Positions 4,075-9,291 of a DNA stretch of 64,000 bases are shown piece after piece (positions within the stretch are counted from its first letter, which is position 1; the number at the start of each line of letters is the position of its first letter). The notes under the pieces were generated by a model. That model ran no database searches and was not told the DNA's origin. It worked only from the letters and a program-made list of their open reading frames with translations. Where the stretch lies: the NCBI GenBank assembly GCA_964510945.1, contig CAZEED010000005.1, positions 4,132 to 68,131 on the forward strand. Reading direction: 5' to 3'. Source of the DNA: an uncultured Candidatus Saccharibacteria bacterium (GTDB taxonomy: Bacteria > Patescibacteriota > Saccharimonadia > Saccharimonadales > JAGQNJ01). The position numbers and the translations under genes were made by a program.

Positions 4075-4180
4075 CCCTATATTTTACCAGATTATCCCTG
4101 TTAAGTATTCTTTTACTTAACAAATATTCATGTATTTTAGTATTGTTATTTTTAATATGTATGTTATAGTATATGCATAT

Positions 4181-5602
4181 ATGGAGAGAAGACACCTGAT
4201 TACAAATTTAGTTGCTGGGACTGCAGCTGCGACTGCTGCATTTCATATGGCTTATGATCCACCCCAAATCCACTGGGGACCAGAACGTGAAACACATACT
4301 GCCGAATACGACGAGACAAGTTACGGCTTTCCTTTAAGGATTGCACCAGACGGGATAGAGACAGACCTATTTGCATCATCTGAAGCGTCCCCAATACCAT
4401 ATGAGGCAATAACCAATATGGAGGCTAATCCAACTACTGGCGGCTTTGATCGATACGACATGCAATCACTTGCAGATACACTTCGATACTTAAGCAGAAG
4501 TAATTATAGCCAATATCGTATAGTAATTACGCCCCACATCTCCGCTGAAGACAATAGCGGTAGTGCTGACGGCGGTATATCAACGGAAAGTTTAAGTAAT
4601 CTCGCTATAGCCGAGCTAAAAGGTCAAGAAATGGCTGACTTTATCCGAACCACTGCCGGCGAACTTGATTTAGATCTCCCACTCATCCAAGTACAAGAGT
4701 CAGAAGAACAATTAATCTCTGATCAATCCACTATGTGGGACGGCGAAACAATTATTAAAGACCAACTTGACTATCTGGTAGGTGAATTTGGTTATGACAA
4801 CCCTAATGACATGATCCGTAGATGGCGCCAGGCCCCGGCCGATGCACCACCTGAAGTCCGCACTACGCTTCGCTCAATTTTTAACGGTCAATCATTTGTT
4901 GATGTAAAAATTCTGACCCCAGAAGAAGAAGTTTGCCAAATCACCATTACTCATCACAAAGATGTAGTTGAGAGAGAGCGGGATAATGAATATCCTCTAC
5001 CAGTCGCGATTCCTGGATATTTGCCAGTCGTTGGTGCAGCCGCGTTACTCAGTGCAGGATTGCGAAAAAGAACTTCAGATAACGGTACACCACGTGAACC
5101 GAGACCACCTAGAGAGAGTCGTACAGTACCGTATAGTGGAGTATCCGGACCTGGATTTGGTGGCTCTAGTAGATTCGGCAGACGAAGGCGAAGCCCATAT
5201 CGTAACCGATATTCAGGCAGAGCCCACAACAGAAGTGTCGATTATCGTCGTCACAACCAAGATAACTCCAGAAGGCTAAGAAAAATAGGTGCATGGGTAG
5301 CAGGTACGGCATTAGTGCTTGGACTTGGATATCTAGGGGCCGAAAAATGGAATGATACTACACTAACCAGCGATGGTACTTGCGTAGACATCCATAAACA
5401 GCCAAACACATGGGGTGTATCAATACACCCACATATTGGTGATCAAGAATGCTCCGGTACAACCGCAGCACCCGACTACACCCCACCTCGTCAAAACTCT
5501 GATCCTTGTAGATACCTACCACAAGAAACAGTTGATGGTGGGACTATAGTACGAAGATTTGAAGACGGCGAATTAAAAAGCACTCAAGTCGTAACCCCAT
5601 AA
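4181..5602 (+). CDS. Hypothetical multi-TM protein with an Arg-rich disordered loop and a Cys-containing C-terminal domain
   Basis: The ORF track begins at 4130, but ATG 4181 (MERRHLITNL) avoids an implausible hydrophobic leader. Three predicted TM segments. Loop sequence RKRTSDNGTPREPRPPRESR..GRRRRSPYRNRYSGRAHNRS. No recognisable domain. Confidence 0.55.
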   Translation: MERRHLITNLVAGTAAATAAFHMAYDPPQIHWGPERETHTAEYDETSYGFPLRIAPDGIETDLFASSEASPIPYEAITNMEANPTTGGFDRYDMQSLADTLRYLSRSNYSQYRIVITPHISAEDNSGSADGGISTESLSNLAIAELKGQEMADFIRTTAGELDLDLPLIQVQESEEQLISDQSTMWDGETIIKDQLDYLVGEFGYDNPNDMIRRWRQAPADAPPEVRTTLRSIFNGQSFVDVKILTPEEEVCQITITHHKDVVERERDNEYPLPVAIPGYLPVVGAAALLSAGLRKRTSDNGTPREPRPPRESRTVPYSGVSGPGFGGSSRFGRRRRSPYRNRYSGRAHNRSVDYRRHNQDNSRRLRKIGAWVAGTALVLGLGYLGAEKWNDTTLTSDGTCVDIHKQPNTWGVSIHPHIGDQECSGTTAAPDYTPPRQNSDPCRYLPQETVDGGTIVRRFEDGELKSTQVVTP

Positions 5603-5634
5603 GAACCTAAAAGATCATTTTTGCCCGATTATTT

Positions 5635-6756
5635 TCAGACGTAGCCTCCGCTACCGTGATTTACTTTTCTGTAAATTCGATCATATAGTCGATTAGCATC
5701 GCCTTTGGTTAAAGTTTTTTCTAAATGCCTGAGGGTAATCCTAACTAATACATTTTTCTGTTTAGGTAAAATACCTAATCTATCTTGAATCTTTTTTGGT
5801 AAATCCGCGTAAGCTGTTTCGTCGAGCACTTCTACGCTTTCCAGCACATCAACTTCATCGCCAAGAGCAATGCGAATATACTCATTTATGTCTTCTTCTA
5901 CATAGTTCTCTGGAACACTATATGACATATCTCGCCTTATAGCTGGTTGATTAGAAACCTCTCGATACGGCTTTAAATCTTTCATTTGACGGGCGATCTT
6001 TGGATTTGTCGATCTCAAATAACGTATATCTGGAATTGATTTTAGCGTCATTACTAACCTATCTAATCCAATACCTGATGCCCAGCCAGAATAAACTTTC
6101 GGATCCAGCCCAGCATTTGCTAGTATTTTTGGGTTAATCAGGCCACATTCCATGATCTCAATATCGCGGTCTTCTTTGACAGCGTTGACTTCCATCCCTT
6201 CGGTCGTATAGGGATGTGGCATGTCAACAATCCGCAGTTTCCAGCCAGGCGCAGCCACCTTTGCTATCCCTTCCACTACGCCTTTCAAATCCTGCCTCAC
6301 AATTTGTTTATTTTTGCACACGCGCCAAATACCTAGCATATGAATAGCAGACAAGTGTTTTTTGTCAGTCACATCGCGTCGATAGACAACTGCAGGCGTT
6401 AAAATTACCACGTCATCCCAATCATCTCGTTTCGCTAAATCCCGTAATATTCCTGGGATATGGGCCGTATCGTGCGTACGTAAAATGTGTGTCTCGTCGA
6501 CATAATGCGTGTAGGTAGACGAACGGCTGATATTATCCTTATCTATCAGCAAATTGTCGTAATTGTCCTCGACGCTAACTATTGGGCTACCCCGATATAC
6601 CATAATTTGACTGCTGGGGTGACTTGCTCGAATATAGTCCTCAATTTTTTGGTACAACAACTTTACCGCATGCGGTTCTTTCGAATCTGTTAAATCCGGT
6701 ACGGCTAGATACCTTTCTAGTACCTCTTTGTCGATTGGTTCTATATACATTTTCAT
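5635..6756 (-). CDS. Single-chain PheS-like class II aminoacyl-tRNA-synthetase homolog fused to a C-terminal FDX-ACB (anticodon-binding) domain
   Basis: - PheS-like core: RTHDTAHIP, motif-2-like VVYRRDVTDKKHLSAIHMLGIW, HPYTTEGMEV..IEIMECGLINPKILANAGLD, motif 3 SGWASGIGLDRLVMTLKSIPDIRYLRS.
- C-terminus matches the FDX-ACB pattern: DMSYSV..LESVEVLD..VLVRITLRHLEKTLTKGDANRLYDRI.
- Start taken at MKMYIEP (6756), 1 nt after the upstream stop. Confidence 0.75.
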   Translation of the reverse strand: MKMYIEPIDKEVLERYLAVPDLTDSKEPHAVKLLYQKIEDYIRASHPSSQIMVYRGSPIVSVEDNYDNLLIDKDNISRSSTYTHYVDETHILRTHDTAHIPGILRDLAKRDDWDDVVILTPAVVYRRDVTDKKHLSAIHMLGIWRVCKNKQIVRQDLKGVVEGIAKVAAPGWKLRIVDMPHPYTTEGMEVNAVKEDRDIEIMECGLINPKILANAGLDPKVYSGWASGIGLDRLVMTLKSIPDIRYLRSTNPKIARQMKDLKPYREVSNQPAIRRDMSYSVPENYVEEDINEYIRIALGDEVDVLESVEVLDETAYADLPKKIQDRLGILPKQKNVLVRITLRHLEKTLTKGDANRLYDRIYRKVNHGSGGYV

Positions 6757-6757
6757 T

Positions 6758-7000
6758 TTATTTCCACCAATCCCAAGGTCGGCCCACCATCTCATCTAGC
6801 GACCGTCCCTTGGCCCACGCATCATTAGCAGGTTCTGTGGCTATATCTATAGGCTCGTCGGGTGGGTTAACCAAAACTTCTGGCCCCTCCAGCATGGCTT
6901 TACCTAAATTTTGCGCCATCAGCGGCTGTACACATCTTAAGCCTCGCCCAGATTCGCCAATACACATATTTCTAACTCGTTCTCCGTTAATTTCACTCAT
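6758..7000 (-). CDS. Small hypothetical protein (80 aa) with C-terminal GRPWDWWK tail
   Basis: AAGGAG sits 6 nt upstream of the ATG at 7000. The stop TAA (6760-6758) is 1 nt from the ATG of the PheS-like gene, so the two are translationally coupled. No recognisable domain. Confidence 0.55.
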   Translation of the reverse strand: MSEINGERVRNMCIGESGRGLRCVQPLMAQNLGKAMLEGPEVLVNPPDEPIDIATEPANDAWAKGRSLDEMVGRPWDWWK

Positions 7001-7033
7001 AATTTTCTCCTTAGTCTAAATATTTTCAAATAC

Positions 7034-7079
7034 AAAAAAACCGCCCAGGAGTGATTCCCCTGGGCGGTTTTTGTTTTTT
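7034..7079 (-). terminator. Rho-independent terminator, structurally bidirectional
   Basis: Stem ccgcccagg (7041-7049) pairs with cctgggcgg (7059-7067) around a 9-nt loop. An A-run (7034-7040) and a T-run (7068-7079) flank it. It lies downstream of the 169-aa gene on the minus strand. Confidence 0.75.
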
Positions 7080-7120
7080 AGCAATACTTAAACCAGCCGA
7101 GAATCACTCCTGGGCTGCAT
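7041..7120 (-). promoter_or_regulatory. Attenuator-like element: terminator, competing 15-nt antiterminator and 10-codon uORF
   Basis: 7101-7115 (gaatcactcctgggc) is the perfect reverse complement of 7043-7057 (gcccaggagtgattc). That stretch covers most of one terminator arm (7043-7049) and most of the loop (7050-7057). The uORF ATG 7120 to TAA 7088 (MQPRSDSRLV) overlaps the upstream competing segment. Confidence 0.5.
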
Positions 7121-7253
7121 AAATGAAATTCCTGATTGGTTAGCGTGCTTTATCATAGCTACACCAAAATATCACAACACAATAAGTTTGTCAAACAATA
7201 TTTATGCTTACGTGTCAATTATTCTAGTACTAGCCAACCGTGTTATTACCTTA

Positions 7254-7763
7254 TTAGTATCGACGCACAGCCGCTTCTAGAGACTGTTCATAGAGTTCCC
7301 AGGCTCTGTCAAAGTCAAATCCCACTTCGATGGCATAATCGTCTCCTGCCACCCGCAAATAATGATTTGCGTCTGTTTCTGCAAGAATCCCCTGAGTGTC
7401 AAAGTATGCATCAAACAATGACCTAATTGTGACTTCATGATCTTGGCCAGCAACGCTACGCTCATATATACCCGTAGCTATGCCGATTTGATTGGCGATT
7501 GCGTCTTTTTGTTTGTCAGGCAACTCTTGGCCTACCTCAGGACTATCAACTAACCCGATTAATCTTGTTAACGTTCTCTCTACCGCCGACTGTTCTTCAA
7601 ACGGCTTCTCAATAATAATTCGGGCTCTCTTCGCAACGTCTATTCGCGCCTTGCCGTTTCCTGTCAATAATTCTGCAGGTGTAATGTGCCCGACATATAT
7701 GGCGCTGTCCGTACCTAATGCTTCTTTGATTTCTTCAACGCTTAGTCTTATTGATTCACTCAT
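7254..7763 (-). CDS. Hypothetical protein (169 aa)
   Basis: Intact ORF with coding-like composition, second gene after the riboswitch-like leader. No recognisable domain. Confidence 0.6.
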   Translation of the reverse strand: MSESIRLSVEEIKEALGTDSAIYVGHITPAELLTGNGKARIDVAKRARIIIEKPFEEQSAVERTLTRLIGLVDSPEVGQELPDKQKDAIANQIGIATGIYERSVAGQDHEVTIRSLFDAYFDTQGILAETDANHYLRVAGDDYAIEVGFDFDRAWELYEQSLEAAVRRY

Positions 7764-7787
7764 GTTTTAATCTCCTAATAAAAATTT

Positions 7788-8030
7788 TTAGTAATTTGAT
7801 AGATTGCGACGCCGATACTCGTCGCGAAGCGCAACCACGAAAGCTCCACGAGTACTAACCCAGCCTGGGTTACCGCGATCTTTTTCTCGTGTCTGGATTA
7901 ACTCCTCATCAGTCAAACACTGAAATCTCTCTGTAAACCGCTCGTATTTTTGCGCTAGAGTTTCTTGTACTTCTGAGTCCAATGGTGTCTCTATATGTTC
8001 CGGTGTTATCGGATATTCTTCTTGACTCAT
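7788..8030 (-). CDS. Hypothetical small acidic protein (80 aa)
   Basis: AAGGAG lies 8 nt upstream of ATG 8030. First gene after the SAM-I-like leader. No recognisable domain. Confidence 0.55.
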   Translation of the reverse strand: MSQEEYPITPEHIETPLDSEVQETLAQKYERFTERFQCLTDEELIQTREKDRGNPGWVSTRGAFVVALRDEYRRRNLSNY

Positions 8031-8062
8031 TTTTATGCTCCTTAGCTAAATTCATTTATACT

Positions 8063-8209
8063 AAAAACCAGCAGAAAATGCTGGCTATCAAGTAATTTTG
8101 TGCATCATATCTGTCCCCTTTCATAGGGCGAGAATTGGCACCGTGGCTATTAAAGCTCGGTTGCCGGCGGTATCATTGGGCTCGATCCCTACTCCGCACT
8201 CGCAATATT
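8063..8209 (-). promoter_or_regulatory. SAM-I (S-box)-like riboswitch with intrinsic terminator
   Basis: The minus-strand RNA reads AAUAUU-GCGAG-UGCGGAGUAGGGAUCGAGCCCAAUGAUACCGCC-GGCAACC-(P3 insert)-GGUGCCAAUUCU-CGCCCUAUGAAAGGGG-ACAGAUAU. This matches the conserved S-box core blocks GGAG.GGGA, GCCC.AUGA, GGCAACC, GGUGCCAAUUC and AGAU.
It is followed by the hairpin AGCCAGCA-UUUUC-UGCUGGUU (8068-8084), a U5 tract, then the RBS. Confidence 0.6.
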
Positions 8210-8244
8210 AGTTGTTAAGTAACCACATTATACCAAATAATTTA

Positions 8245-9291
8245 CTATTTGTTGGCACGCCTTGTTAGCGCAATTAAAGGTTTGCTCGTCCACTCAATTG
8301 CTTTTCTTCGTTTATCCAGCTGGGAGCCATATGTACCGTTAACAGGATCAGTAAGTTTTATACTGTAGCTATCACTCGTTCTAGGTTCTCTGCCACCGAT
8401 GAACTGATTTCCAAGAGCCTGGAGGGCGATATTGGCTTCTGCTGCCTTTCCCCTTAATGCAGCCTCCAAATTTTCACTATGAAATTCAAAGTCATCGATT
8501 ATTGCTTTAGATGAACGCAATGCATCTAACTCATCTCGCGCAATATTTAGAAGCTCTTCGTCCAATATCGAATCTAATGCTGGTAGATCTGCATACACAT
8601 CCTCGCCCCGAACAATTGATTGAACAATATCCATATACAAGTTATATACACTTTCGCCTGAAAATTCCGACCTAATCCACGGTACTATGTCAGAGCCAGC
8701 TACAATTACTTGTTCATAATGCAGATCAGCTCTTTTGTCGTAACCTGGTTCACCAACTTTAAGAGTTTGAGAGTTAAATGGTATTAATCCTCCGGTTTGA
8801 TCTGATAAATATTGAGATCTGTAATGTTGAGTTTCAACAGGACCTTCTAGGAAACCATGAATATTTGTATATACGTTGTTAACAGCGATACCTGCACTCT
8901 TTCGATTACGAGTGCTTTCAAACGGAACAACCAATCCCACAGGTTCTGGGATATCAAGAATCGTACCAATATAACCAGCTAGGTATACAAACTTAGCATC
9001 GTGCTCATAGCTCTCGTGTGCAACATCCAGCAAAGCGACAGGCTCGCCTTGTCTACCATCTAAATAGTCATGGATTTGTTCAACGCCTGCTAGCATGCTC
9101 ATATCAAGTCCTCCGTCATCTTCGATGCCGTGACTTTTCGCGACTGCTGTCTGCAAATCATCACCAAAGGCAACCCTGTCAAAAGCAAACGCAGAAGCAA
9201 CACTACCTTCTCTGTCTTTGTAACCTTCAGGCAATTGCTCTAAATCAAAAAATATTTTCTCTCTTTGTGCTACGACTGCTTCTATTCGCAT
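8245..9291 (-). CDS. Hypothetical protein (348 aa)
   Basis: Long intact ORF with AGGGG upstream of the ATG. No recognisable domain. Confidence 0.65.
   Translation of the reverse strand: MRIEAVVAQREKIFFDLEQLPEGYKDREGSVASAFAFDRVAFGDDLQTAVAKSHGIEDDGGLDMSMLAGVEQIHDYLDGRQGEPVALLDVAHESYEHDAKFVYLAGYIGTILDIPEPVGLVVPFESTRNRKSAGIAVNNVYTNIHGFLEGPVETQHYRSQYLSDQTGGLIPFNSQTLKVGEPGYDKRADLHYEQVIVAGSDIVPWIRSEFSGESVYNLYMDIVQSIVRGEDVYADLPALDSILDEELLNIARDELDALRSSKAIIDDFEFHSENLEAALRGKAAEANIALQALGNQFIGGREPRTSDSYSIKLTDPVNGTYGSQLDKRRKAIEWTSKPLIALTRRANK

Follow-up and report, generated by a model that had tools for sequence, protein, structure and literature searches.

What is the role of the short open reading frame (ORF) that directly precedes a phenylalanyl-tRNA synthetase (PheRS)-like ligase gene in an uncultured Candidatus Saccharibacteria bacterium, and does its product belong to the ligase or to the wider PheRS system? 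The ORF occupies positions 6758..7000 on the minus strand of a 64,000-nucleotide (nt) stretch of DNA (GenBank assembly GCA_964510945.1, contig CAZEED010000005.1, positions 4,132 to 68,131; hereafter the window), and the ligase gene, srmL, follows it immediately. A preliminary description, drawn from the sequence alone, had interpreted the ORF as a translationally coupled gene whose product might be a complex partner, chaperone or substrate of the ligase, made in a fixed ratio with it. We find that the ORF is a genuine, conserved protein gene, the local member of a family designated here fam1, and that its product, like the ligase, contains no phenylalanine. With a probability of roughly one half, fam1 is a trans-acting protein in the PheRS system, made with SrmL behind an attenuator as a module for Phe-tRNA shortage.

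A conserved small-protein gene upstream of srmL

The small ORF comprises 80 codons, from an ATG at 7000-6998 to a TAA at 6760-6758, and its translation into 80 amino acids (aa) is identical to the one previously quoted, including the Trp-rich tail. The protein contains four Trp, no Phe and no Tyr, and its C-terminal end reads NDAWAKGRSLDEMVGRPWDWWK (...PWDWWK). The AAGGAG Shine-Dalgarno (SD) site reported upstream of the ORF is present on the same strand at 7012-7007, 6 nt before the ATG, and the first cistron of relatives is also preceded by a AGGAGAAA-type SD site. At the junction with the ligase gene (6754..6768), the letters TGG TGG AAA TAA A ATG place the TAA and the srmL ATG (6756-6754) a single base apart (6757), as had been described, and the 1-nt junction is identical in the related loci L048 and L059. 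The GGTGGA (6768-6763) suggested as the ribosome-binding site of the ligase does lie 7-12 nt ahead of the srmL ATG, but it constitutes only a partial SD; in relatives without the small ORF, srmL is preceded by GGAG-type sites (AAGGAG, CGGAG, CAGGAG). Some public gene calls start the ligase at an ATG at 6795 (386 aa), in out-of-frame overlap with the small ORF. The true srmL start is MKMYI at 6756, since M1, M3, Y4 and I5 are invariant in the alignment of homologs.

An 80-codon ORF is by itself no proof of a gene, since the first 16 kb of the window contain 79 ORFs that are 40 aa or longer. We searched for homologs in steps, using a word-indexed search, exhaustive HMMER, tblastn against srmL loci and, finally, a profile built from the loci-derived homologs. 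With the single small-protein sequence as query, the word-indexed search returned no match beyond the protein itself, and exhaustive HMMER recovered two relatives only. The tblastn search yielded weak but correctly placed matches just upstream of the ligase in L048, L008, L014, L010 and L047, and the profile search then retrieved 16 protein clusters of 60-85 aa, every one from Saccharibacteria-type contigs. A metagenome scan with a narrower alignment added one fam1 locus (L070).

Alignment of these homologs revealed two motifs, M-R-E-R-N-M-W-I-G-E-T-G-R-E (RNMWIGETGRE) at the N-terminus and L-S-L-D-E-L-V-P-R-T-W-K-K-W-stop (LSLDELVPRTWKKW-stop) at the C-terminus, joined by an acidic, Pro-rich and variable linker of 35-55 residues that is barely alignable. 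The C motif ends 0-1 residue from the stop in most members, and the N motif is equally conserved. The window copy is a slightly deviant member, carrying RNMCIGESGR and SLDEMVGRPWDWWK: its N motif (consensus RNMWIGETGR) corresponds to residues 10-19, at 6944..6973, where synonymous variation is visible in the DNA of homologs, and its C motif (SLDEMVGRPWDWW; consensus SLDELVPRTWKKW) aligns to residues 67-79, at 6764..6802. The Ser of the C motif is replaced by Ala in L014 and by Pro in P0135/L063 and L070 and is missing in L010, one of the copies (with P0136) in which the C motif is lost.

Against its closest homolog, in L059 (63% identity), the small ORF shows a ratio of nonsynonymous to synonymous substitution rates (dN/dS) of ~0.18. 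In 44 of 45 pairwise comparisons within fam1 the proportion of nonsynonymous differences (pN) is lower than that of synonymous ones (pS), and the motif amino acids are retained while synonymous sites are saturated. The protein nonetheless evolves fast, its identity amounting to 45% in a comparison in which the ligase reaches 89%, and the family is lineage-restricted. The position of the ORF after a terminator and its strong SD, the conservation of the protein across 16 clusters and the excess of pS over pN establish it as a real gene, so that the initial view of a protein gene co-transcribed with a PheS-like ligase has held up. No family match for the protein was found in Pfam, NCBIfam, PADLOC or a PDB profile search. 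An AlphaFold 2 (AF2) model computed with the family alignment (predicted local distance difference test, pLDDT, 63; predicted template-modelling score, pTM, 0.18) contains no domain, and two short helical turns within the C motif (pLDDT ~70-76) are its only structure; the protein is thus predicted to be intrinsically disordered.

The downstream ligase is a PheRS paralog

The srmL gene (5635..6756, minus strand) encodes a 373-aa PheS-related ligase that matches the NCBIfam family NF051887, 'PheS-related mystery ligase SrmL', with 413 bits (cut-off 300; E = 9e-124; residues 20-367). It combines in one chain a class II catalytic core (PF01409) and a C-terminal FDX-ACB anticodon-binding domain (PF03147), and its AF2 model (pLDDT 84, pTM 0.81) finds its best Foldseek matches in structures of human mitochondrial PheRS (FARS2; PDB 3CMQ, 3TUP), which share the two-module architecture and superpose over the full length (TM 0.71-0.74, E ~1e-24). 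Unlike FARS2, SrmL is essentially Phe-free, with FPFT changed to HPYT, FHQLE to (V/I/L)H(M/Q)L(E/G/D) and GWAFG to GWA(L/S)G, and FARS2 works without a small partner protein such as the one considered here. At E <=1e-20 we recovered 913 homologs, the best 120 of which are 66-99% identical and, where named, belong to Candidatus Saccharibacteria or Saccharimonadales; likewise, the 51 srmL loci in GTDB species representatives all lie in Saccharibacteria/Saccharimonadales.

In the 121 aligned SrmL sequences, motif 2 (YRRDV.DKKH) and motif 3 (SGWA.G.GLDRL) are invariant, as is the Ala that sets the size of the amino acid pocket in PheRS (E. coli A294, T. thermophilus A314; PMC3275996). Also invariant is HPYT in place of the PheRS FPFT, whose aromatic pair (T. 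thermophilus Phe258/Phe260) recognises the phenyl ring; human cytosolic PheRS has Tyr at the second position of this pair as well (PMC3275996). The Gln position of FHQLE is occupied by M in 106 sequences and by Q in 15, and the Glu position by E in 76, G in 26 (including the window) and D in 19. We take the Gln and Glu of FHQxE to hold the amino group of the substrate in canonical PheRS. A co-variation test indicated that SrmL residue 142 (G/E/D) tracks clade and not the presence of the small ORF. The Phe-codon leaders of relatives and the Phe-free composition described below suggest that SrmL may charge tRNA-Phe. Literature searches on SrmL, Saccharibacteria PheRS and monomeric bacterial PheRS found nothing relevant, and a search of the 64-kb window for canonical pheS or AlaXM found neither. 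For a protein so far annotated merely as a 'mystery ligase', the Phe-codon attenuators and the loss of Phe provide a context.

A leader-peptide attenuator precedes the operon

Upstream of the small ORF, on the same strand, we identified a sigma-70-like promoter (7166..7194; TTGACA, 17 nt, TG-TATTTT), the best promoter-like site within 5400-8400, with 10 of 12 matches plus the TG. From this promoter, transcription would begin 2-5 nt ahead of the ATG of a 22-codon leader ORF (7088..7156; MIKHANQSGISFMQPRSDSRLV-stop), so that translation of the leader is, judging from the sequence, probably leaderless. This leader ORF was assigned by position and, in part, by sequence homology to the Phe-rich leaders of relatives, and retains one Phe codon (TTT, 7123-7121). 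Its 3' part (7096..7117) overlaps the antiterminator strand, which pairs with 7042-7067, the loop and 3' arm of an intrinsic terminator, and thereby competes with it. The terminator (7034..7072) was detected by a terminator scan as a CCGCCCAGG / CCTGGGCGG stem of 16 pairs followed by a U7 tract. The antiterminator pairing is the minimum free energy structure of the whole leader (-48.1 kcal/mol, z = -4.9; none of 200 shuffled sequences folded equally well), and the terminator alone folds at -27.6 kcal/mol. In constrained folds, a ribosome footprint over the 3' end of the leader ORF abolished the antiterminator and allowed the terminator to form.

The leader peptides of most relatives are Phe-rich (...NFFFGNFIQAASPRT-stop, ...DFFFADFMPAATPRTY-stop, ...SFFFFGFFAA-stop, ...NFFMTSSLGGLAGFTK-stop), with 3-6 Phe within the last ~15 codons, and the terminators that follow sit 22-65 nt ahead of the first cistron. 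An automatic rule detected a Phe-rich leader and terminator ahead of the first cistron at 33 of 44 loci; four more recognized by eye bring the count to ~37. The clade of the window departs from this pattern: in L048, L059 and, from a downstream ATG, L008, the leader ends in ...(I/N/A)SF(M/T)QPRSDSRLV-stop and keeps one Phe codon. Rfam has no family for the window leader, which obtained sub-threshold matches only to the trpB motif and His_leader, and Rfam searches of 15 related loci returned nothing. Across loci L009-L070 the leader-peptide attenuators fall into at least three or four sequence types, none of them in Rfam, and the transcripts carrying the Phe-rich leader ORFs of this attenuator family are probably leaderless.

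In leader-peptide attenuation, a run of cognate codons in a short ORF governs the choice between alternative antiterminator and terminator hairpins, as in the E. coli pheST (pheM), trp, his and pheA operons. The element described here resembles the pheST attenuator in placing a leader ORF and alternative hairpins before a PheRS-type gene. It differs in being unrelated in sequence, in its absence from Rfam, in its probable leaderless translation, in the single Phe codon of the window leader and in the protein-coding small ORF that separates the terminator from the enzyme gene.

The small ORF tracks the attenuator more closely than the ligase

The linkage of fam1 and srmL was assessed in two censuses, one of the srmL loci of GTDB species with upstream sequence and one, independent of srmL, of the genomic places of the clusters recovered by the protein search (16 contexts). 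At the GTDB species loci, the slot between attenuator and srmL is filled by fam1 in six cases, by a second family (fam2) in five and by other Phe-poor ORFs in three, and is empty in ~27. The homologs sought beside ligase genes are therefore found, though not at the ~27 srmL loci with an empty slot. Near relatives differ in this respect, the slot being empty in L011 (ligase 79% identical), occupied by fam2 in L009 (82%) and by fam1 in L008 (85%). Where both genes occur, the spacing to srmL lies anywhere between -4 and +21 nt, and the srmL of some relatives has a strong SD of its own. The translational coupling proposed for the pair is plausible in the window, L048 and L059, where 1 nt separates the genes and the ligase lacks a good SD.

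In the second census, srmL lies downstream of fam1 in 10 of the 16 contexts (P0001, P0122-P0126, P0128, P0132, P0133 and P0136) and is absent in four fam1 clusters and one metagenome locus. The contexts without a full srmL present an AlaXM-like gene and canonical pheS in two cases and an AlaXM-like gene in two more. On the contig of the closest fam1 homolog (L059), srmL is cut to 53 codons (4245-4406) and followed by unrelated genes, possibly as a result of a real deletion or of an assembly chimera. Loci L060-66, which represent two divergent lineages (P0129, P0130) with intact fam1 motifs, consist of attenuator, fam1, a 155-nt spacer and an AlaXM-like gene, with no srmL. The spacer (L060 1381-1534; also in L064) contains a TATAAT-like box and a mini-ORF, MYMTMTFKGF-stop, that may be another small leader.

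In L068 (256-1527) and L070 (293-2334), the attenuator is followed by fam1, an AlaXM-like gene and canonical pheS. PheS is full length in L070, with the motifs FPFTEPS, FYQLEG and GFAWG; in L068 it is a fragment that scores 30.7 bits against PF02912. Because these two loci document a canonical PheS within the group, SrmL is an extra paralog at least there. In L010, L014, L039 and L071 the gene directly after srmL is likewise AlaXM-like, a homolog of an editing protein; together with the L068 and L070 operons this suggests a trans-editing factor linked to PheRS in Saccharibacteria. In every context with upstream sequence fam1 stands behind a leader-ORF and terminator attenuator, which is steadier than any downstream gene. 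The presence of fam1, the second Phe-free product of one regulatory unit, is thus tied more reliably to the attenuator than to the ligase.

The fam2 proteins (L009 2181-2423, L013 132-386, L036 2762-2998, L040 1092-1349 and L056 3664-3996, all in the slot before srmL) are Phe-free, helical and ~80 aa long, with the consensus ...IG..LH.AETAI.LGRR...EPVDEAAIEA...W. A comparison of fam1 and fam2 with hhalign detected no similarity. The small ORF of L010 combines the fam1 N motif with a middle section that matches the fam2 hidden Markov model at E = 5e-6, making either a distant relationship between the two families or a recombinant in L010 possible. The other slot ORFs, without family match, occur in L043 (2994-4004, 336 aa), L039 (3450-4004, 184 aa) and L044 (3705-4004, 99 aa), each with a 4-nt overlap with the srmL start, and may likewise belong to a Phe-starvation set.

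Phenylalanine is avoided in the products of the operon

The window SrmL has no Phe in 373 residues, and among the ORFs of the window that are 120 aa or longer it alone lacks Phe; the median Phe content of such ORFs is 3.6%, and the next lowest value after SrmL is 1.1%. In the 120 best SrmL homologs (P0002-P0121) we counted 14 Phe in 45,108 residues (0.03%), versus 3.64% in the other ORFs of the window. In other Patescibacteria, the more distant SrmL-like proteins (42-48% identity) carry 1.6-4.0% Phe, so that the purge of Phe is specific to the Saccharibacteria SrmL clade. We also considered whether HPYT could be a product of Phe avoidance and rejected this explanation, as the Phe-containing distant homologs already have HPYT, which is therefore older than the purge.

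The avoidance extends to fam1, which has no Phe in 1,212 residues and 1-5 Trp per protein (2-5 in all but one), with Phe never substituted at the Trp positions. The remaining cistrons between attenuator and srmL are Phe-free or nearly so, with 0 Phe in 437 residues of fam2 and in the 99-aa ORF and one Phe each in the ORFs of 184 and 336 aa. The downstream neighbours have normal contents, with 6-9 Phe in the AlaXM-like proteins and 20 in canonical PheS.

The need for the cognate amino acid during starvation has been described as a 'catch-22' that low cognate bias solves (PMC4209129), and the Phe-free pattern of SrmL and the slot proteins is consistent with that argument. Biosynthetic enzymes of low 'cognate bias' are recovery proteins poor in the scarce amino acid (Fasani & Savageau 2014, PMC4209129); the depletion seen here differs in being total, ~100-fold below background, and in affecting a tRNA synthetase paralog and its small partner. 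Attenuator and Phe purge would together fit an emergency PheRS that can be made with no Phe-tRNA left, and if this is true SrmL would be an extreme and clean example of a solution to the cognate 'catch-22'. Leader-peptide attenuation and low cognate bias are both known principles; what is new is their union around a fully Phe-free PheRS paralog in Saccharibacteria, with an attenuator family outside Rfam and a small-protein family without match to known families.

A candidate trans-acting protein of the PheRS system

In the mechanism that we propose, a two-gene operon, the small ORF followed by srmL, would be transcribed from the promoter at 7194-7166 through the leader-ORF attenuator. In most relatives the leader carries a run of Phe codons, and a scarcity of charged tRNA-Phe should therefore turn the operon on; the case for such induction is strong for these relatives and uncertain for the one-Phe leader of the window clade. 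Since both the small protein and SrmL lack Phe, both could be made during Phe-tRNA shortage, and the 1-nt spacing and weak SD of srmL make it probable that its translation here depends on that of the small ORF through termination-reinitiation. The small protein would most likely act in trans, its end motifs providing two flexibly joined contact points for binding or regulating one component of the PheRS system, with SrmL, canonical PheRS, the AlaXM-like factor and tRNA-Phe as candidate partners. Under this reading fam1 is a candidate part of a response to Phe shortage or PheRS inhibition in the amino-acid-auxotrophic, host-dependent Saccharibacteria. A bolder version, to which we attach a small chance, would make the protein a Phe-free adaptor in a translation 'restart kit' used after Phe-tRNA exhaustion, its motifs tethering SrmL, or else canonical PheRS/AlaXM, either to tRNA-Phe or to ribosomes that have stalled at Phe codons and replacing functions of the PheS coiled coil or of PheT.

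Several observations weigh against a trans-acting role in Phe-tRNA shortage. Most srmL genes lack any small ORF, which makes the role of the small protein dispensable. In L063 the attenuator and fam1 are followed, 46 nt on, by LigT-like, HIT and HAD genes with no obvious link to PheRS. In a simple model, a ribosome footprint at the single Phe codon of the window leader still lets the terminator form; Phe sensing is deduced from the relatives, and in the clade of the window it may be weaker or altered. Finally, acidic disordered proteins are aromatic-poor in any case and the fam1 sequences are related to one another, so that the Phe-free statistic is illustrative and not formal.

A dedicated stoichiometric partner of SrmL, whether subunit, chaperone or inhibitor, kept at a fixed ratio by translational coupling, would explain the tight junction and weak srmL SD in the window, L048 and L059, the immediate succession of fam1 and srmL in 10 of 16 contexts and the use of the same slot before srmL by fam2 in five lineages. 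We nevertheless think it unlikely: the slot is empty in ~27 species-level srmL loci, spacing and SD vary among relatives, fam1 opens operons with AlaXM-like and canonical pheS genes as well, and its motifs remain intact where the operon has no srmL, including the divergent P0129 and P0130. The pairing is non-obligatory both ways, and the fixed-ratio partner, chaperone or substrate of the preliminary description is consequently not the best reading; the fam1 contexts without srmL and the many srmL genes without fam1 lead us to prefer trans action over a subunit of SrmL only. Another reading is a starvation signal that acts in trans on targets outside the PheRS system, by analogy with anti-TRAP (RtpA) of Bacillus subtilis, a small protein that is induced by a shortage of charged tRNA and binds another protein in trans. 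The attenuator is more constant than any downstream gene where upstream sequence is available, fam1 is alone behind it in L060-66, where the 155-nt spacer holds a promoter-like box, and the genes that follow in L063 would suit such a signal. The downstream genes are, however, overwhelmingly PheRS-related, no candidate target is known, and fam1 has neither a DNA- or RNA-binding domain nor similarity to anti-TRAP or any other family. Whereas anti-TRAP is a Zn-binding, Cys-rich oligomer under the control of a T-box and a leader peptide, fam1 is acidic, Phe-free and predicted to be disordered, with no sequence or structural similarity to it, and a target of this kind seems to us improbable.

Translation of the small ORF, and not its product, might instead be what matters, the ORF acting in cis by delivering ribosomes or by nascent-peptide arrest, with no role for the free peptide. 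Like TnaC, SecM and MifM, fam1 is a short ORF just upstream of a gene and has a conserved C-terminal peptide with Trp and Pro near the stop; this peptide reaches the stop, usually within ~20 nt of the next start, the window has the 1-nt spacer and weak SD, and unrelated ORFs fill the slot in different lineages as if translation alone mattered. This cis-acting role is distinctly unlikely in view of the N motif, which, unlike in those arrest peptides, is equally conserved and, when translation terminates, is too distant from the peptidyl-transferase centre to serve as an arrest peptide, and of the persistence of the ORF far from downstream starts (155 nt in L060-66, 46 nt in L063); these two features are why we favour trans action. 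Several relatives, moreover, have an independent strong SD for srmL, and most srmL genes manage without such an ORF. The least supported proposal, and a very improbable one, is that fam1 is a substrate or precursor peptide whose Trp-rich tail, or some other residue, is aminoacylated or otherwise modified by SrmL in the manner of an amino acid:carrier-protein ligase, of EpmA/EF-P or of a ribosomally synthesized and post-translationally modified peptide. The non-canonical SrmL residues at the amino-group site (Q to M, E to E/G/D) agree with it, and SLDE-V bears what we take, as a lead only, to be a loose likeness to the DSLD-V phosphopantetheine site of carrier proteins. Opposed to it are the lack of a carrier fold or Pfam match and the predicted disorder, the replacement or loss of the motif Ser in L014, P0135/L063, L070 and L010, the lack of modifying enzymes nearby in Pfam and NCBIfam searches, the retention of the anticodon-binding domain in SrmL, which mostly occurs without the peptide, and the occurrence of the peptide without srmL. 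That the ORF arose by chance or is a decaying remnant without function has almost no probability left; its fast evolution, the loss of the C motif in L010 and P0136 and its lineage restriction would fit decay, but purifying selection (dN/dS and the pN/pS comparisons), the retention of two motifs across 16 clusters despite saturated synonymous sites, the strong SD and the lack of Phe do not.

Two further candidate identities were examined and rejected. A carrier protein is incompatible with the absence of a Pfam or NCBIfam match, the disorder of the AF2 model, the position of the motif at the extreme C-terminus and the variable Ser. A type II toxin-antitoxin pair is at odds with the mostly solitary occurrence of srmL, the presence of fam1 without srmL and the absence of a fold or family match, PADLOC included.

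Neighbouring elements

Convergent with srmL, an ORF on the plus strand (4130-5602) encodes 490 aa with apparent hydrophobic segments and a long Arg/Ser/Pro-rich low-complexity stretch, and has no family match. On the other side of the operon, a SAM riboswitch (8104-8211, minus strand; 49.3 bits) with a terminator (8066-8086, minus strand) precedes two minus-strand ORFs of 80 aa (7788-8030) and 169 aa (7254-7763), which have no family match and contain no Met beyond the initiator. The observation applies equally to the close relatives L048, L003, L008 and L004, and these ORFs may constitute a 'cognate-free' parallel to the adjoining Phe-free operon.

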